From positions 64,341 to 128,340 of the forward strand of contig JACPCL010000031.1 of the NCBI GenBank assembly GCA_016179765.1: a DNA stretch of 64,000 bases, read 5' to 3'. Under the pieces are notes generated by a model, which saw only the letters and a program-made list of their open reading frames with translations, did no database searches and was not told the origin of the DNA. This document shows, piece by piece, positions 651-42,850 of the stretch (positions within the stretch are counted from its first letter, which is position 1; every line of letters begins with the position of its first letter). The DNA comes from Chloroflexota bacterium. GTDB taxonomy: Bacteria; Chloroflexota; Dehalococcoidia; Lucifugimonadales; JACPCL1. Both the position numbers and the translations under genes were made by a program.

Positions 651-1028
651 CTAGCCGTTGTTTGCTGCGAGCGCGTCATGTATGGCCAGTTCGGAAATCC
701 AGCGGAAGTCTTCAGTATTGTGAGTGACTAGCGTGCGACCAAAAGCTAGAGCAGTCCCGGCGATAATAGCGTCGGCGAGGCTCATACGCCGCCTTTGGCG
801 CAGCCGCACCGCCCAATCAGCGACTGTATTTGTGAGGGGCAAGACTTCCGTGGCGTGGAAGAAGGCCAGAAGGATCTGCCGTTCTTGGCTGTGGAGGCGG
901 TGGTAGCCCAGTACCTCTATGAAGGTGACGACGGATACCGACGGAGCATGTTGAGCAATGAACTGCCGTAGGTCCACATGGGCAGGCTGGGCGGCGTAAA
1001 TGACGATATTGCTGTCAAGCAGCATCAC
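651..1028 (-). CDS. vapC: PIN-domain toxin, VapC family
   Basis: 125 aa: [11 protein letters not shown]...[24 protein letters not shown]. Acidic residues fit PIN spacing. Overlaps the upstream antitoxin ORF by 4 nt. Confidence 0.85.
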
Positions 1029-3933: not shown

Positions 3934-4821
3934 TCATTGTGCTCCTCTAGCCCATTGTAAATCCCGACCTATCAAGAGTTCGGTCATCTGAACATTATGG
4001 GTATTTTTCATGGGGATCACTTCAATATCAAACCTATGATCTTGTGCTAATCTCTGAGCTTCCAAAGTATTGTCATATGTCATAAGAAAATCGCCTCGCA
4101 AAGTTTCAACTACGTTAAACAACTCTTCGTGGTTCAGGTCATTGTAACGGTAGAGACGTTTCCCTGCTTTTTTCCCCCCGGCAGTATAAGGGGGATCAAT
4201 AAAAAATATGGCATCCTCTTGTGTGGCTTTCTGTCGCAAAAGTGGCACTCCATCACCTTCAATAAAGTCAATCCTATCCTTAATGGCCGCTATGTCCAAT
4301 ATTCGTTTGCGGAGAGTTGCAGGATACCACCGCGACTTGATGCCTTTCCCATTTTCACCGCTCTTGATCACGCCACTGCCAGGTGCAAGAATACCTCCAT
4401 GATTCACTCTGTTCTTAAGCAGGGTTTGAAAAGCCTTCTCTTTAGGATCAGCATATTCTGTGTCTAGAACACTTCTCACTGACTCAAAAGACACATCAAA
4501 TGAGGTTATTTTATTAGCTAGCCATTCGGCGGAGTCCCCGAGAATAGCCTTCCAAACAGCAGCGACTTGGTCATCGAGTTCTGCCAGGACTACCTTAGAA
4601 GCCCAAGCCTCAAATGCCACCGTTAATCCTACGATGCCACCTCCAGCAAAGGGTTCTAGGAACTCCTTTGCTGGTCTTTGCTTCTGAGCAAGCCACTGCC
4701 TGACCAAGGGAACGAACCATGTCTTGCCCCCCGGGTAACGGAAAGGACTCCTCTGGGGAACAGAGGCAACATTCACCACCCGGTGCTGTTCGCCAATAGC
4801 AGGCAATTGTAGCTGCACCAT
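3934..4821 (-). CDS. D12-class (Dam-like) N6-adenine DNA methyltransferase
   Basis: FRYPGGKTWFVP, FLEPFAGGGIVGL and FFIDPPYT motifs. The region is visibly AT-rich compared with its flanks. Confidence 0.85.
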   Translation of the reverse strand: MVQLQLPAIGEQHRVVNVASVPQRSPFRYPGGKTWFVPLVRQWLAQKQRPAKEFLEPFAGGGIVGLTVAFEAWASKVVLAELDDQVAAVWKAILGDSAEWLANKITSFDVSFESVRSVLDTEYADPKEKAFQTLLKNRVNHGGILAPGSGVIKSGENGKGIKSRWYPATLRKRILDIAAIKDRIDFIEGDGVPLLRQKATQEDAIFFIDPPYTAGGKKAGKRLYRYNDLNHEELFNVVETLRGDFLMTYDNTLEAQRLAQDHRFDIEVIPMKNTHNVQMTELLIGRDLQWARGAQ

Positions 4822-4826
4822 GGTTC

Positions 4827-5735
4827 TTACAGTAATACGTCTAGTGTGGGTGCATCAGGTGAGTTATCATCTTCCAGTTTATCATCAAGCTTTGACTGCA
4901 ACAGTTCAAGAAAATCTTTTTCCTCTCCCGTCTCCGGACTCATAATTCTCGCTAATGCAGCTTCAGATCTTACATACACTCTTTTGTGGAGTTGCAATGT
5001 GTATCTCTGCTGCGAAGGGTTGTAGGTTAGGTCATATACGAGCCATACGATGTCCGCTTCATCACTGCTTACTTCCGTGAACTTTGGAAGGCTCTCGTAA
5101 AGACCCCTGTTCAACGCCACTGCCATCTTCCGCTTCCAAGCCCTGAGAATACCTCCCTTGTATATCATTTGCGGAACAAGGCGCTTACGTGATGAAGAGA
5201 GATAATCAGGCCTTGGGTAGTTTGGTTGCTTCGTCCAATCCATATCATGATTGGCTGAAGGGTCTTTCAGATATTGCTCAAATGGCCGACGTATGTTGCC
5301 TGAAATATAGACCGCCTGTATTTCCAGAGCACCGAAGTCAATTACCCTCCCTCGTCCATCATACGAAACAAGGACTATGTCAATGTTCCCCGCAGCCTTT
5401 CCTACCCTGTCCTTTAAGTGCACTTCTGTTAGTGAAGTCCAATTTGTACCCTGAGGGAAGAAGAAAGCGGCGGCATCATCGGAGATTGTCCAATCCTGAC
5501 GAAATCTGATGGGGCAAGTAATGACTACATCATTATCGTCATAAATACTGCAAACCCCAAGAGGATCATTGGCTTTATCTTTGGTACAGTTTGGCACTTT
5601 GTTGTTAAATGGGCAAAGCCTATTTCTGCGGTATCTTGCCGCCTCCAGTGATAGGTTGTGCGGCGGAAAGCCGAACACCTCCGCAAGAGGGTGGCGGTTA
5701 GGTTGCTGCGTCATGTTCGCCGTCATTCGCTCCAT
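4827..5735 (-). CDS. Type II restriction endonuclease, NotI-like family
   Basis: AEVFGFPP..SLEAARYRRNRLCPFNN..CTKDKANDPLGVCS (Cys4 cluster) and IDIVLV...FGALEIQAVY core. ATG 5735 overlaps the purM TAA (TAATG) and GGGGAGGGG lies upstream. The longer ORF reaching 5813 is rejected. Confidence 0.7.
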   Translation of the reverse strand: MERMTANMTQQPNRHPLAEVFGFPPHNLSLEAARYRRNRLCPFNNKVPNCTKDKANDPLGVCSIYDDNDVVITCPIRFRQDWTISDDAAAFFFPQGTNWTSLTEVHLKDRVGKAAGNIDIVLVSYDGRGRVIDFGALEIQAVYISGNIRRPFEQYLKDPSANHDMDWTKQPNYPRPDYLSSSRKRLVPQMIYKGGILRAWKRKMAVALNRGLYESLPKFTEVSSDEADIVWLVYDLTYNPSQQRYTLQLHKRVYVRSEAALARIMSPETGEEKDFLELLQSKLDDKLEDDNSPDAPTLDVLL

Positions 5736-6718
5736 TATCCCCTCCCCACCTCTCCCACCACCCACGCCTCCGGCAGCAGGCGCAGCAGCGCATCCGCATT
5801 GGCCCGCTCGCACGTCATCACCATGCCCACGCCCATGTTGAACACGCGGTACATCTCCTCCCGCGCCACGTTGCCACGCTCCTGGATAATGCGGAACAGC
5901 GCAGGCTCCTTCCAGCTTTCGTAGTCAATGCGCGCCCGCAGGCCAGCGGGAATTGCCCGCGCCACGTTGTCCTCCAGCCCATCGCCGGTGATGTGGCCCA
6001 TGCTCTTCACCAGGGGCAATGCCGGGGCCAGCAGCGGGTAGTAACTGCGGTGCGGCTCTAGCAGGGCCTCTCCCAGGGTGCGGCCAAGCTCCGGGTAGCG
6101 ATCATGCAAGGGGGAAGGGTCCTTGTCCAGGTCAAAGACGTGGCGCACCAGGGAGTATCCATTGGTGTGCAGGCCGCTGGAAGGCACAGCGATCAGGATG
6201 TCGCCCGACTTCACTTTGGTGGGGTCCAGGAGCTGGGGGCGCTCGGCAGCGCCGACGACGAAGCCGCACAGCTCAAAGGCCCCCTCCTGAAAGTGGTTGG
6301 AGAGCTGGGAGGTCTCGCCGCCGATGAGGGCGCAGCCCGCGGCTCGGCACGCCTCGGCGATGCCCTTCACGATGGCCGCTACCCGCTCCGGCACGATCTC
6401 CTCCATGGCGATGTAGTCCAGGAAGAAGAGGGGCCGTGCGCCGGTGGTCAGCACGTCGTTGACGCTCTGGTTCACCACGTCGTGGCCGATGGTATCATAG
6501 CGCCCCATCCAGGAGGCCAGCTTCAGCTTCGTGCCCACGCCGTCGGTGCTGGAGACCAGCACCGGCTCCTTGAAGCCCTCCAGCTTGAACAGGCCACCGA
6601 AGAGGCCGATGTCCCCCAGCACCTGCGGCCCGAAGGTGGAGCGCACGAAGGGGTTGAACAGCTCTTTAGCTCTGGCGGCGGCGTCCAGGTCTACGCCCGC
6701 GTCACGATAGGTGGTCAT
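5735..6718 (-). CDS. purM: Phosphoribosylformylglycinamidine cyclo-ligase (AIR synthetase)
   Basis: 327 aa: MTTYRDAGVDLDAA...SSTDGVGTKLKLA...DYIAM...GGETS. Confidence 0.95.
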   Translation of the reverse strand: MTTYRDAGVDLDAAARAKELFNPFVRSTFGPQVLGDIGLFGGLFKLEGFKEPVLVSSTDGVGTKLKLASWMGRYDTIGHDVVNQSVNDVLTTGARPLFFLDYIAMEEIVPERVAAIVKGIAEACRAAGCALIGGETSQLSNHFQEGAFELCGFVVGAAERPQLLDPTKVKSGDILIAVPSSGLHTNGYSLVRHVFDLDKDPSPLHDRYPELGRTLGEALLEPHRSYYPLLAPALPLVKSMGHITGDGLEDNVARAIPAGLRARIDYESWKEPALFRIIQERGNVAREEMYRVFNMGVGMVMTCERANADALLRLLPEAWVVGEVGRG

Positions 6719-28006: not shown

Positions 28007-28081
28007 TGGTAGCGGGGGTTGGACTCGAACCAACGACCTTCGGGTTATGAGCCCGACGAGCTGCCACTGCTCCACCCCGCG
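28007..28081 (-). tRNA. Initiator tRNA-fMet (CAT anticodon, CCA encoded)
   Basis: CGCGGGGTGGAGCAGTGGCAGCTCGTCGGGCTCATAACCCGAAGGTCGTTGGTTCGAGTCCAACCCCCGCTACCA. Shows a 1:72 mismatch, A11:U24 and three G-C pairs closing the anticodon stem. Confidence 0.9.
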
Positions 28082-28262: not shown

Positions 28263-28280
28263 GTGTCAGGGACTTAATAT

Positions 28281-31200
<2,920 letters not shown>

Positions 31201-35429: not shown

Positions 35430-36538
35430 CTACAGCCTTGGCTTGCTGGCGGTGCTGCCGCCCCGGCTCTTCGCCGCCTTGGGGCGGAACTGCTTGAGGC
35501 CCGCCAGGAACCCATCGTAATTGCGGCGGGTCTCCTCCAGGTGGTCGCCGCCGAACTTCTCCAGGAAGCAGCCCACCAGCACCGTGGCCAGCACCGCCTC
35601 GCCGATGACGCAGGCGGGCGGCACCTGGCAGATGTCGCTGCGCTCGTAGTGGGCCTCCACCACCTCGCCGGTGTCCAGGTCTACCGAGGGCAGGGGCTTG
35701 CTAAGGGTGGAAATGGGCTTGAGGGCCATGCGGGCCACGACCGGCTCGCCGTTGCTCATGCCGCCCTCAATGCCGCCGGCGCGGTTGGTGACGTGGTGGA
35801 AGGGGCGCGCGTCGCCGCTCCACGGCTCAATAATGTCGTGGACGTTGGAACCGAGCTTCTCGGTGTTCTCAAAGCCGGCGCCAATCTCCACGCCCTTGAC
35901 CGCCTGGATGCTCATCATGCCCTGGGCGATGAGGCCGTCCAGCTTGCGGTCCCACTGGGTATGGCTGCCCAGGCCCACGGGGACGCCGTAGGCGACGACC
36001 TCAAAGACGCCGCCGGCGGTGTCGCCGTTGTCGCGGCACCAGTCAACGTGGGCCATCATGGCCTTGGCGGCCTCAGGGTCGGCGCAGCGCACCGGCGACG
36101 CCTCCACGGCGTCCCAGTCAATCTTCTCTGGCATCCTGGCCTTGATAGCAGCGATGGTGAGGACGTGGGAGTGAATGGCGATGCCGAACTCCTCCAGGAA
36201 GCGGCGGGCCACCGCGCCGGCGGCGACGCGGGCCGCCGTCTCCCGGGCGCTGGCCCGCTCCAGGATGGGGCGGACGTCGTGCTGGCTGTACTTGAAGACG
36301 CCGGGGAAGTCGGCGTGGCCAGGGCGCAGGCGTGTGACGCGGCGCACCTTGGCGTCGTCGTCCACCGGCGCCACGGACATGGCTTCGGTCCAGTTGACAA
36401 AGTCCTTGTTCTCCACCCACATGGCGATGGGGCTGCCCATGGTGAGGCCGTGGCGGACGCCGGAGAGGCGGGTATGCCCTCCACGATGACGACGCCGCCC
36501 TTGCCGTGGGACTCTCCTGCCGTGAAGTAGCGGAACAT
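35430..36538 (-). pseudogene. aroC: Chorismate synthase disrupted by an internal out-of-frame deletion
   Basis: ATG 36538 gives MFRYFTAGESHGKGGVVIVEGIPA. The next family-matching stretch, LSGVRHGLTMGSPIAMWVENKD...RPGHADF...ERASARETAARV..., is in a different frame. About 35 codons are missing, including the RRQxGxGRGxRM motif. Confidence 0.75.
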
Positions 36539-36539
36539 G

Positions 36540-37335
36540 GGGGCCTCCTTACCTCTCCCCCCTTCCCCCTCCCCTGAAGAGGGAGGGGGTGAGAAGGATG
36601 GGTTGCCAGGGCATATCGTATACGCGGGGCAGTGCAAAGACAAGGCTGACCGCACCCGTGTGGTAAACGAGTCGTAGGGGCGATGCGGTGCATCGCCCAT
36701 GGGCGTGGGTGGACACGCAGGCCATGCTCCTGCGGGCGCGAAGGCGTTGTAGGGGCGCAGCATGCTGCGCCCCTACGGGCGAGGGCACCCGTTCCGTAGG
36801 GGCAGACCCGGGTGTCTGCCCTGCCCTCGGCCCTGGGCGGACACGTCGGTCCGCCCCTATGGTGGGCACCCTCCCCGTAGGGGCAGACCCGGGTGTCTGC
36901 CCTGTCCTTGGCCCTGGGCGGACACGTCGGTCCGCCCCTATGGTGGGCACCCGTTCCGTAGGGGCAGACCCGGGTGTCTGCCCTGCCTCGGCCCTGGGCG
37001 GACACGCTGGTCCGCCCCTACGGGGAGGGAGGCGCTGCCGTTTTGTCATTCCTACGAAAATGGCTTCCTCCCCCCTTGCGGGGGAGGATTGAGGTAGGGG
37101 GTAGGCCCTCGTTCACCCCCATTCCTTCGCTTCCGCTCAGAGCCTGCCCTGAGCCTGCCGAAGGGACAGGCTCAGGCCTTCCCCCGTCAATGGGGAAGGA
37201 ACTGACGATTGACCCTTTTCATCCCTCCTGTGCTGGCCCCCACCAGGAGAGTTTCCTCGCTTCCCGCCACGCTGCGCTCGCGGCTAAAGGCTCACCGGAA
37301 TGACAGAGGGCTGTCCTACGGGCGCACGGGTATGT
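36540..37335. repeat. ~0.8-kb gap made almost entirely of palindromic repeat modules
   Basis: CCCCCTTCCCCCTCCCCTGAAGAGGGAGGGGG, M7 GTAGGGGCGCAGCATGCTGCGCCCCTAC (36748-36776), the tandem array, and M8 at about 37140. Confidence 0.85.
36748..37030. repeat. Tandem array, about 3 copies of an 81-bp unit
   Basis: GTAGGGGCAGACCCGGGTGTCTGCCC...GGGCGGACACGTCGGTCCGCCCCTATGG starts at 36796, 36877 and 36958 (period 81). Each unit contains two hairpins. Confidence 0.9.
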
Positions 37336-37342
37336 ATGAATG

Positions 37343-37372
37343 AGAAGAGGCCCGCCTGGGCGGGCCTCTTCT
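37343..37372 (-). terminator. Hairpin downstream of the selenoprotein gene
   Basis: AGAAGAGGCCCGCC-TG-GGCGGGCCTCTTCT, with no U tract. Confidence 0.5.
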
Positions 37373-37394
37373 GGGGGTTGTCTGTTCTGAGGGC

Positions 37395-37688
37395 CTAGTG
37401 GGCTCCCACGGGCACGGGCGCCCGGTCCAGCCGCTCTATCAGGAGAGGCCTGACCTTGCGCAGAGCGCGCAAGCTGGTGAGGAAGTCGCCGTCGCCGGCC
37501 TCCTTGCGGGAGTACACCAGCGTACCGTCCAGATAGACCTCAAACCGCCCATCGCTCACGGGGGTGAAGACGATGGAGGTCTCCTTGACGCGGCCGTCGC
37601 AAATCTCCGCTGCGAAACTCGCAGCCTTCCAGAAATAGCCTCAGGATACGCAGTACTTGATCTCCAGCCGGACCTTTCCTTCTGCCAT
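37395..37688 (-). CDS. selW: SelW/Rdx-family selenoprotein (CxxU) with in-frame UGA at 37641-37643
   Basis: MAEGKVRLEIKYCVS[U]GYFWKAASFAAEICDGRVKETSIVFTPVSDGRFEVYLDGTLVYSRKEAGDGDFLTSLRALRKV.... Compare the SelW motifs VYCGAUGY and FEV..G.L.HSKK.GDG. Absent from the ORF track because of the TGA. Confidence 0.8.
37609..37625 (-). promoter_or_regulatory. Candidate bacterial SECIS hairpin
   Basis: GCUGCGA-GUU-UCGCAGC begins 15 nt after the UGA. Confidence 0.55.
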
Positions 37689-37904
37689 GGTGCTCCCTCC
37701 TCTTGTGGTGCTGATGCCATTTGGCGTCTTGGGAATAGATTGTGCGCCTGGACGCCTGGGATGTCAACTCTGGAAGGGATGAGGAGGTTTGGGGCAAAAT
37801 CTCTTATGCGGGGCAAATATTCTTGAAAAAAGGGCCCACAGCGGCGAACAAAGCGGTAAAATAGAGCAAGCACCGTATCCTTTTTTTCGCCGAGAGGTAG
37901 GGAC

Positions 37905-38444
37905 ATGATCAAAGCCATCGCCTTTGACTGGAGCAACACCCTCATGCGGGAGATCCCGCTCATCCGGCGGCCCTCTGCCCGCTCGCCTCAGATGGAGGTG
38001 GTGCCGGGCGTCACCAGCGCCTTGAAGGAGCTGCACCAGCAATTCCTCTGCTGCATCGCCTCCAACGCCAGGGGGCCTGAGGTCAGCGCCCTGAACATGG
38101 TCCTGGAACGGGCGGGGCTGGCGCAGTACATCGGCCACGTCTTTACCGCCCAGGAACTGGGCGCCCCCAAGCCGGAGGCCAGGTTCTTTCATAGCCTGCT
38201 CTACAAGCTCATGCTCAAGCCCCACGAGTGCGTCATGATAGGGGACGATTATAATGTGGACATCGCCGGCGCCAAGGCCGTGGGCATGAAAACCATCTGG
38301 TTCATCGAGCGCACCAACCAGGAGGCGCGGGACGCCGACGTGGTCATCGGCGCCATGAGCGAGCTGGCGACGGCCGTTGGCAAGCTGGCTGCCCAGGGGG
38401 AGCGGGAGGCCACGAGGCCACGGGTGGCGACACCCTCTCCATAG
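37905..38444 (+). CDS. HAD-superfamily hydrolase (subfamily IA-like)
   Basis: MIKAIAFDWSNTLM...IASNA...MIGDDYNVDIAGAKAVGMKTIWF. Confidence 0.8.
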   Translation: MIKAIAFDWSNTLMREIPLIRRPSARSPQMEVVPGVTSALKELHQQFLCCIASNARGPEVSALNMVLERAGLAQYIGHVFTAQELGAPKPEARFFHSLLYKLMLKPHECVMIGDDYNVDIAGAKAVGMKTIWFIERTNQEARDADVVIGAMSELATAVGKLAAQGEREATRPRVATPSP

Positions 38445-41305: not shown

Positions 41306-41328
41306 GGGCTTTCAAGGTAGGTTAACGC

Positions 41329-41526
41329 ATGGTTATAAGGCTAGAGGAAGCAATGCATGGCACTTGCCACATCGGAGACCCGTCCGACGGATCCCACGGG
41401 CGAAGGTCACGAAAGTGCAGGCATTGCAGAAGATTGGTTTGTGATGCTCATTGGGTGGTGACTAATGACCAGCTGTTTTGTATTCGTTGTTGGGAGGTGA
41501 CTGCGGTCTTCAGAGAACAGCAGTGA
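41329..41526 (+). CDS. Small Cys-rich (zinc-ribbon-like) hypothetical protein
   Basis: CRHCRRLVC...FCIRCW, in an AT-richer region. Confidence 0.35.
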   Translation: MVIRLEEAMHGTCHIGDPSDGSHGRRSRKCRHCRRLVCDAHWVVTNDQLFCIRCWEVTAVFREQQ

Positions 41527-41640
41527 TTGTCGTTCCGAGCGGAGCGAGGATTGGGGGCGTAGGGTTAACCTCAGGACTCACCTTTCACTTTCGAGGAAAG
41601 CACAATAAGTAAGGTAGCCGCGAAGAGACGTATCGCTCCG

Positions 41641-41973
41641 CTAGCAGGGGGGGTTGGCAGGTACAATAGCCCCTGTACGTACGTAATAGGTCCAGGACCT
41701 GATAACTGGCGTAGTGGAAATGAAGGAGTAGTTGAGGGTGACGAGCCATGAGGCACTTTCGTGAGAGTACTGGGCGGACCAACCTGTATAGCCTAATAAG
41801 CCGGCACACTTAGCTTCGCCTACTTGTTTGGTAGCGAGATAGCTTTTGACGATGCCAATCGCTTCTTCGCTGGTCAGCAACGGCGCTGGGGTATAAGTAG
41901 GGGTTGGCTCTTTGGTGAGTACAGGGGTACAAGCTAGGATCAGTAATAACACTAGGTACGTCGAAAGTCTCAT
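41641..41973 (-). CDS. Small lipoprotein, hypothetical
   Basis: MRLSTYLVLLLILACTPV: signal peptide with lipobox. Confidence 0.55.
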   Translation of the reverse strand: MRLSTYLVLLLILACTPVLTKEPTPTYTPAPLLTSEEAIGIVKSYLATKQVGEAKCAGLLGYTGWSAQYSHESASWLVTLNYSFISTTPVIRSWTYYVRTGAIVPANPPC

Positions 41974-42019
41974 ATTCTTTGTCCATCAGTCAGCGTTCTA
42001 GAGGTCATTGGAGGACAAT

Positions 42020-42154
42020 ATGGCACACAAAAAAGTAACACGCAAGAAGGCGGCTAGTGCTGCGGGCAAAATACTGAGCACCAAAAAGAGCAGTGCGGCA
42101 GCCAAGTCAGCGGCCGGGAGCGCACTGAGCCAACGGCCGGGGAAGAAACACTAA
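42020..42154 (+). CDS. 44-aa highly basic Ala/Ser/Lys-rich protein
   Basis: GGAGGA lies 4 nt before the ATG. MAHKKVTRKKAASAAGKILSTKKSSAAAKSAAGSALSQRPGKKH. Below the ORF-track length cutoff. Confidence 0.5.
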   Translation: MAHKKVTRKKAASAAGKILSTKKSSAAAKSAAGSALSQRPGKKH

Positions 42155-42191
42155 CATCCCCTCAATTCGGGTACCGGGAAAGGGGACTACG

Positions 42192-42437
42192 ATGAATTCA
42201 ACAATTGAAATGGAAAGGCGCAGATGGCTGAGCTTATGGTATGAGGCCCAAGCACTGCGCCAATCGGCTATGTCTGAAACAATAGTTGAGAGCAATGGTG
42301 TGGCAGAGGTGCGACGGCTTGTTCCGAAGGAGTCCTTTGAGACATCTGTCGCCACATTAGCTATGGCTGAGCGGCTAGAGGCGGAATCCAACGCGGCTTA
42401 TTGGCGTATGCTGCACTTACTTAACCCTGTTAAATAA
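42192..42437 (+). CDS. Hypothetical protein
   Basis: 81-aa ORF in the AT-richer islet with no recognisable motif. Confidence 0.35.
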   Translation: MNSTIEMERRRWLSLWYEAQALRQSAMSETIVESNGVAEVRRLVPKESFETSVATLAMAERLEAESNAAYWRMLHLLNPVK

Positions 42438-42479
42438 GCTGACTTTGTCATAGCAGCGCACCGTAGGGTGCATAGGATA

Positions 42480-42850
42480 GATAATGGAGAGGTGGTTGAC
42501 TGTCATTCTGAGCAAGTCCTTCTTTGGAAGGACGCAGCGAAGAATCTAAGGCGCACGTAGGATAGAGCATCTGCTTCCCAAGCAGGGAGTTCAGGAAGGC
42601 AAACGCCTTAGATGCTTCGTCCTTCGGCTGAAGGACTCAGCATGACAAGGGGGACGACCTAACCCCCTTCCCGCACGGGAATCCCGACTTGTCAGGACTC
42701 TCCTTTTGGGAGAGGGGGACCAAGAGGGAGAAGTCAAGAGGTTAACAGAGGGGATACAGCCTGCCCCTTCAGCAGGCTCAGGGCTGGCTCTGAGCAGAAG
42801 ACCGCCGAAAGCCTGCCCTTGAGCGAAGCGAAGGGCCCTGAACACCGTGA
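42480..42850. repeat. Mosaic palindromic repeat block
   Basis: M5-like GTCATTCTGAGCAAG...GCAGCGAAGAATCT, an M6-like module, M4-like GGGAGAGGGGGACCAAGAGGGAGAAGTCAAG, and M8. Confidence 0.8.

Follow-up and report, generated by a model that had tools for sequence, protein, structure and literature searches.

Bacterial SelW-like selenoproteins with a CXXU redox motif constitute a long-described family (PMC1088965, PMC1794560), which has been known since 2004-2005. In the Sargasso Sea data, the CXXU-containing SelW-like proteins formed the most abundant selenoprotein family, comprising 48 genes with a function that was termed 'unclear' (PMC1088965), and very few Cys homologues of SelW-like proteins are found in Sec-containing organisms (PMC1794560). 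Selenoprotein-containing Chloroflexi are on record as well (PMC1794560, Table 2). In eukaryotic SelW, the SECIS element is of a different architecture and resides in the 3'-UTR (PMC1088965, Fig. 7 legend). The bacterial SelW-like members (PF10262/TIGR02174), on the other hand, are small single-domain proteins of ~100 aa that combine an N-terminal CxxU motif and a conserved G-x-F-E-[VI] ... [YW]-x-R-K block with a SECIS element located in the coding sequence just past the UGA, and all of these features recur in the gene described here. To our knowledge, no biochemical function has been established for any of the bacterial members.

The prototype of the bacterial SECIS elements is that of E. coli fdhF, in which G23 and U24 are the determinants of SelB binding. 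According to the consensus given in a 2026 review, bacterial SECIS elements feature a loop of 3-9 nt and an upper stem that measures 4-16 bp; a G, usually followed by G or U, occurs within the first two loop positions, UGA and loop are 16-37 nt apart, and the minimum free energy (MFE) is -7.5 kcal/mol or below (PMC13188914).

The gene in question is located on the minus strand of a 64,000-nucleotide stretch of DNA from a Chloroflexota metagenome-assembled genome (MAG), the whole of which is referred to as the window. By direct reading, 15 sense codons (MAEGKVRLEIKYCVS) extend from the ATG at 37688-37686 to a TGA at 37643-37641, which constitutes codon 16, and the same frame continues 3' of this TGA for 81 sense codons (GYFWKAASFAAEICDGRVKETSIVFTPVSDGRFEVYLDGTLVYSRKEAGDGDFLTSLRALRKVRPLLIERLDRAPVPVGAH), beginning with GYFWKAASFAAEICDGRVKETSIVFTPVSDGRFEVYLDGTLVYSRKEAGDGDFL and ending with PVGAH, before it terminates at a TAG (37397-37395). 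The complete CDS of the proposed Rdx/SelW-like selenoprotein consequently spans 37395-37688 and comprises 97 codons including UGA-16; its translation starts with MAEGKVRLEIKYCVS-U-GYFWKAAS..., and Cys13, with which the CxxU motif begins, is encoded by a TGC at 37650-37652. The original prediction, which had been derived from the letters and a list of open reading frames, located the start, the TGA, the 81 subsequent codons and a downstream hairpin correctly to the base, and it was equally right in stating that ORF logic misses the gene, since the mechanical ORF list holds only a GTG-started 54-aa fragment at this locus (37395-37559). The same fragment was deposited in GenBank as MBI2171361.1, 'hypothetical protein HYU30_05005', 54 aa, from a Chloroflexota MAG. 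In our assessment, the locus represents, with a probability of roughly 0.92, a real, mis-annotated 97-codon gene, in which UGA-16 would be decoded as Sec to yield a SelW-like Rdx redox protein. As judged from the sequences, the comparative evidence shows a translated gene of 97 codons whose catalytic position is occupied by a conserved UGA, together with a conserved and covarying hairpin of the SECIS consensus type, and the in-frame UGA almost certainly encodes selenocysteine.

If the TGA were a genuine stop instead, the locus would harbor either a decayed Rdx gene or just the 54-aa GTG-started ORF as the expressed unit. Both ORF logic and the deposited annotation, which yield the 54-aa fragment only, are in line with such termination, as is the finding that Sec machinery was not seen within the 64-kb window. 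The homologues, however, argue against it. Two types of relatives emerged from the protein search: the first consists of six full-length proteins of 107-109 aa (within P0007-P0014), which read MAEGKV.LEI.YCVPCGYFW, carry Cys at the TGA position and are named 'selT/selW/selH-like putative selenoprotein' by JGI or 'Rdx family protein' by NCBI, while the second consists of thirteen calls of 54-70 aa that start at assorted points just past the motif. In the DNA of three of these truncated calls, an in-frame TGA follows MAEG[KR]VRLEIKYCVS. Moreover, a metagenome scan returned 231 confirmed relatives, the best 80 of these 231 loci being kept, and the full set of 88 homologous sequences, composed of the window gene and 87 loci, features TGA at codon 16 in 85 cases and TGC in three. 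The TGA is shared by homologues down to 39 % identity, and a search of genome contigs with the U-to-C protein led to a single distant Acidobacteriota locus.

Furthermore, the start MAEG[KR]V is shared by the orthologues, as is the reading frame on both sides of the TGA. Among the 69 distinct TGA forms, nucleotide diversity at the first, second and third codon positions amounts to 0.24/0.17/0.45 in the 10 codons 5' of the TGA. For the 27 codons that separate the TGA from the GTG start of the 54-aa fragment, the corresponding values are 0.28/0.19/0.49, and no further stop occurs in these codons on either side. This third-position-biased diversity on both sides of the TGA, together with the absence of any other stop, indicates that translation proceeds past the TGA without a change of frame, and the comparison of homologues that had been proposed along with the original prediction likewise found the sequence downstream of the TGA conserved in frame. 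The database calls of 54-70 aa, by contrast, start at differing, non-homologous positions, and the 54-aa fragment would lack two parts of the Rdx domain, namely beta-1 and the redox motif. Hence, termination at this codon appears exceedingly unlikely.

A sequencing or assembly error that turned a TGC or TGT into TGA could be suspected in view of the metagenomic origin of the genome and of another window gene, aroC, that looks disrupted. Nevertheless, an error is excluded by the independent Logan assembly L002, whose sequence is identical to the window gene, and by the presence of TGA at this codon in 85 independent loci; in addition, a second MAG contains the same truncated call (MBI4197971.1). 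The reading of the TGA as an error is thus effectively refuted.

Concerning family membership, profile and structure searches were conducted with the protein in which U was written as C. The protein scored 48.6 bits against the Pfam model Rdx (PF10262; gathering score 22.6), against which the segment 3' of the TGA, taken alone, reached 27.9 bits, and 40.9 bits against TIGR02174 (CXXU_selWTH; cut-off 34.2), so that the proposed SelW/Rdx type was borne out above both curated cut-offs. By E-value, the best NCBIfam match was NF041051 (SelTWH_Campy; 8.8e-12); with 45.1 bits, the gene falls far short of the 88 bits required for this equivalog and hence does not belong to it. Among solved bacterial Rdx structures, 2fa8 (Atu0228; E = 2.4e-8) and 2p0g ('Selenoprotein W-related protein'; E = 3.3e-6) were matched, followed by 3dex, 2obk, 2oka, 2ojl and 2ljk, and C13 and U16 fall on the CxxC of these proteins. 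The alignments with 2fa8 and 2p0g cover 80-86 residues, and the strand block downstream is in register, as is the redox motif: C13-V-S-U16 coincides with C-T-Q-C of 2fa8, with C-R-Q-C of 2p0g and with CVPC of P0007-P0014. Cys13 is thereby aligned to the first Cys of the motif in 2fa8, while U16 matches the second cysteine of the CxxC motif both in 2fa8 and 2p0g and in the CVPCGYFW homologues, in agreement with the earlier claim that the TGA occupies the U of CxxU. Unlike the window protein, 2fa8 and 2p0g possess Cys rather than Sec at the second motif position, and identity to them is low.

The mammalian SelW motif reads VYCGAUGY, and the motif context of the window protein, IKYCVSUGY, is very similar to it. 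Mammalian SelW (2npb) belongs to the same family but was matched only weakly (E = 0.72), and orthology between the two cannot be demonstrated. Homology to the solved structures suggests a thioredoxin-like alpha/beta fold for the window protein. The AlphaFold2 model of the Cys homologue P0007, which was computed from a 19-sequence alignment, is poor (pLDDT 63, pTM 0.56), and the fold assignment therefore draws on sequence homology only.

The proposed SECIS element is a hairpin within the CDS at 37609-37625 (minus strand), which consists of the 5' arm GCUGCGA (37625-37619), the loop GUU (37618-37616) and the 3' arm UCGCAGC (37615-37609). It begins exactly 15 nt past the TGA, while its loop begins 22 nt past the UGA. 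With a 3-nt GUU loop, a stem of 7 bp, a UGA-to-loop distance of 22 nt and an energy of -9.9 kcal/mol for the hairpin alone, it agrees with the published consensus in every quoted respect, which upholds its initial designation as SECIS-like. As in fdhF, the hairpin is located in the CDS soon after the UGA and exposes a small apical G-U loop that is closed by an A-U pair. The G-U of the window gene, however, occupies positions 26-27 counted from the U of the UGA, which is one codon beyond its location in fdhF; the loop comprises 3 nt compared to 4 nt in fdhF, and the stem is devoid of the bulged U. No Rfam model reported this SECIS in the scans of the window. Taken by itself, the 66-nt region folds no better than shuffled sequence (z = -0.15), and hence the case for the hairpin rests on comparison.

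For this comparison, 57 distinct orthologous 66-nt segments were aligned (alignment A2). In the proposed register, 95.7 % of the cells are paired, as opposed to 15-65 % in slid registers, and 30 cells show changes on both sides. Since the encoded peptide, Ala-Ala-Ser-(Val/Phe/Leu)-Ala-Ala, dictates five of the seven stem pairs, just two pairs carry independent information at the RNA level. In each of these two, both partners are third codon positions: the pair of columns 21 and 33 is CG in 30, UA in 22, UG in 3 and GC in 2 of the 57 segments, and the pair of columns 24 and 30 is CG in 51 and GC in 6, and it is this covariation at synonymous sites that further supports the SECIS reading. Of 69 sequences, 67 use AGU as the loop codon and two use GGU, so that the loop always starts with G-U, although AGU accounts for just 4.4 % of the Ser codons in the window genes. 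Seventeen orthologues display a C.A mismatch at one stem pair. In the Acidobacteriota homologue L001, which is 39 % identical, a different hairpin (CCGUCA-GGU-UGACGG) is situated at the same offset. The set of 57-69 distinct orthologues thus illustrates cleanly how, in nature, synonymous sites and codon choice within a CDS are constrained by an RNA signal.

When Sec and Cys forms are set against each other, the third-codon-position pairs 21-33 and 24-30 are paired in 138/138 cases for the former and in 3/6 cases for the latter (Fisher p = 4e-5, a value that is not corrected for phylogeny and refers to three Cys forms). The generalization that Cys forms are devoid of the hairpin had to be dropped, as it holds for just two of the three: at the SECIS position, the Cys form L087 retains most of the hairpin (GCGGCCA-GUG-UGGCCGG), which makes the contrast between Sec and Cys forms small rather than clean. 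The L087 hairpin could be a fossil SECIS that persists after a recent replacement of Sec by Cys.

Sec insertion and the redox chemistry of the window protein are deduced from the established bacterial pathway. Accordingly modelled, the stand-alone gene would give rise to a 96-residue cytosolic protein of the Rdx family (SelW-like), whose N-terminal redox motif, Cys13-Val-Ser-Sec16, would be completed by reading UGA codon 16 as Sec. A ribosome arriving at the UGA would encounter, 15 nt downstream within the CDS, the 7-bp stem with its G-U-N loop, which would act as a bacterial SECIS element. Binding of this loop by SelB-GTP charged with Sec-tRNA(Sec) would then deliver Sec in place of release-factor-mediated termination. 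The product would most likely act as a thiol/selenol oxidoreductase of the thioredoxin fold, in which Sec16 would serve as the attacking nucleophile and Cys13 would resolve the intermediate through a selenenylsulfide.

As to the machinery that this pathway calls for, neither selA, selB and selD nor tRNA-Sec is present within the 64-kb window, where 40 of the 49 composition-called genes were compared with Pfam and eight genes, including five additional small ones, with NCBIfam, and where the only above-threshold matches in the Rfam scans were 23S rRNA and tRNA-Met. In 361 kb of sequence, motif searches for the N-terminal signature of SelD and the PLP-lysine signature of SelA produced one spurious match only. 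An AIRS-fold protein encoded at 5735-6718 was considered as SelD and rejected: it scored 349 bits with TIGR00878 (purM) versus 29 bits with selD, and its gene sits among purF and purH, which identifies it as PurM. In the orthologue L014 (59 % identity), a tRNA-Sec gene is found ~125 nt past the stop codon (651-747), its anticodon being TCA according to ARAGORN and its Rfam score (RF01852) being 64.4 bits versus 47. No tRNA-Sec was detected in the checked close relatives with enough downstream flank, e.g. L024, and the linkage seen at L014 is thus not conserved. Conceivably, the adjacency is a hint that selenoprotein gene and tRNA were transferred as a linked pair.

These data also bear on the possibility that the UGA is read through without Sec, be it by near-cognate insertion of Trp, Cys or Arg or because UGA is reassigned. 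The window contains no sel genes, which formally leaves room for another decoding agent. Reassignment, however, conflicts with the use of TGA as the ordinary stop of 8/35 long window genes, from which it follows that UGA is not reassigned. Read-through without Sec is also at odds with the placement of the codon at the catalytic position, where homologues possess Cys, with the conservation and covariation of a SECIS-consensus hairpin, with the tRNA-Sec gene adjoining the orthologue L014 and with the documented status of the family as a Sec family (PMC1088965, PMC1794560). Non-Sec read-through is consequently regarded as very unlikely. The gene indicates that this Chloroflexota MAG almost certainly possesses the Sec-decoding trait, which predicts that selA, selB, selC and selD, and probably other selenoproteins, are encoded elsewhere in its genome.

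The gene is a well-supported addition to a long-known family with a conventional SECIS element and no new kind of system, and it leaves the views on the mechanism of bacterial Sec insertion and on Rdx proteins unchanged. Its clade, defined by MAEGKV.LEI.YCVSUGYFW..., differs from the family as first surveyed in marine data in that its members stem from MAGs of Chloroflexota and from metagenome contigs that are unbinned (JGI, ENA, Logan). The novelty is confined to a narrow point, namely that public protein sets contain the Sec forms of the clade only as fragments. All those found in protein databases were deposited as calls of 54-70 aa lacking the redox motif, and surveys of predicted proteins therefore undercount the clade. 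When the window was screened for further ORFs of coding-like composition that are interrupted by a TGA, none was free of a better overlapping gene.

The ratio of 85 TGA to 3 TGC is consistent with the scarcity of Cys homologues reported in PMC1794560. A more far-reaching proposal, which we consider rather unlikely, holds that the clade is a Sec-dominant Rdx lineage (85 Sec : 3 Cys) in which Sec is ancestral and the peptide is locked by the SECIS element. So far, the clade has been encountered in MAGs of Chloroflexota, in a single MAG of Acidobacteriota and in metagenome contigs that are unbinned. If the proposal were true, the SECIS would have locked both the Ala-Ala-Ser-(Val/Phe/Leu)-Ala-Ala peptide and the rare AGU codon, and, with gene callers truncating every Sec form, there could be a sizeable, systematically invisible selenoproteome in such environments.

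The sequences flanking the gene include a Shine-Dalgarno-like GGAGG at 37696-37700 (minus strand), 7 nt 5' of the ATG as read from the sequence, and a promoter-like element at 37739-37767 (minus strand), in which TTGACA and CACAAT are separated by a 17-nt spacer (10/12 consensus matches). The latter is the sole sigma-70-like site in 37200-37950, with 0.3 expected in shuffles, and may function as a promoter on the strength of its consensus match. Downstream, a 13-bp hairpin (GAAGAGGCCCGCC...GGCGGGCCUCUUC) with an energy of -27.8 kcal/mol is located at 37343-37372 (minus strand), 22 nt past the stop codon, and is likely a transcription terminator; a terminator scan did not flag it, and its tail UCAUUCAUACAUA is no U-run. 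With a promoter-like site of its own, the GGAGG and the terminator-like hairpin, the Rdx locus looks like a self-contained transcription unit. In the window, its neighbours are a gene for a HAD hydrolase (exact match to MBI2171362.1) and holB, while dehydrogenases, an aldo-keto reductase or LigB are found as neighbours elsewhere among the lineages. The neighbourhood analysis revealed no neighbour that is common beyond close relatives, and the cluster with the most members consisted of the shadow ORF antisense to the Rdx gene. As neighbours are not shared beyond close relatives, no functional inference is drawn from operon context.

Several other features of the window deserve mention. The chorismate synthase gene aroC (35430-36540, minus strand) looks disrupted, with the N-terminus MFRYFTAGESHGKGGVVIVEGIPA (ATG at 36538) in one frame and the remainder, LSGVRHGLTMGSPIAMWVENKD..., in another from ~36467. 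The Pfam match of its main ORF starts at profile position 67, according to which ~40 residues seem to be missing, and the disruption could reflect either a real deletion or pseudogene or an error of MAG assembly. Between aroC and the Rdx gene, a GC-rich unit of 81 bp occurs in three tandem copies (36783-37020; 92 % matches), each of which contains the short inverted repeats GGGCAGAC...GTCTGCCC and GGGCGGAC...GTCCGCCC; the unit looks like an intergenic repeat of the REP or MITE type.

A complete 23S rRNA gene (28280-31200, minus strand) is followed by tRNA-Met(CAT) at 28007-28081. No 5S or 16S rRNA was detected near the 23S rRNA gene of the window, and a FakA-like gene lies ~760 bp upstream (from 31963), so that the rRNA genes appear unlinked. 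The region 41310-42850, which is flanked by nrdR and the gene of a TSCPD-containing, possibly class II, ribonucleotide reductase, covers ~1.5 kb without a large ORF at a GC content of 0.55-0.57, compared to 0.63 overall; it contains small Lys/Ala-rich and helical ORFs, and no riboswitch was found in it at E <= 0.1.

The lowest GC content of the window (0.46-0.53) occurs at 4001-6000, a patch that holds a weakly coding 112-aa ORF (4129-4467) as well as an unassigned stretch up to purM and that may be foreign DNA. Finally, a VapC-like PIN toxin gene (651-1028, minus strand; NCBIfam NF047863, E = 6e-10) adjoins a purH fragment and is accompanied by a divergent short ORF at 1049-1420.
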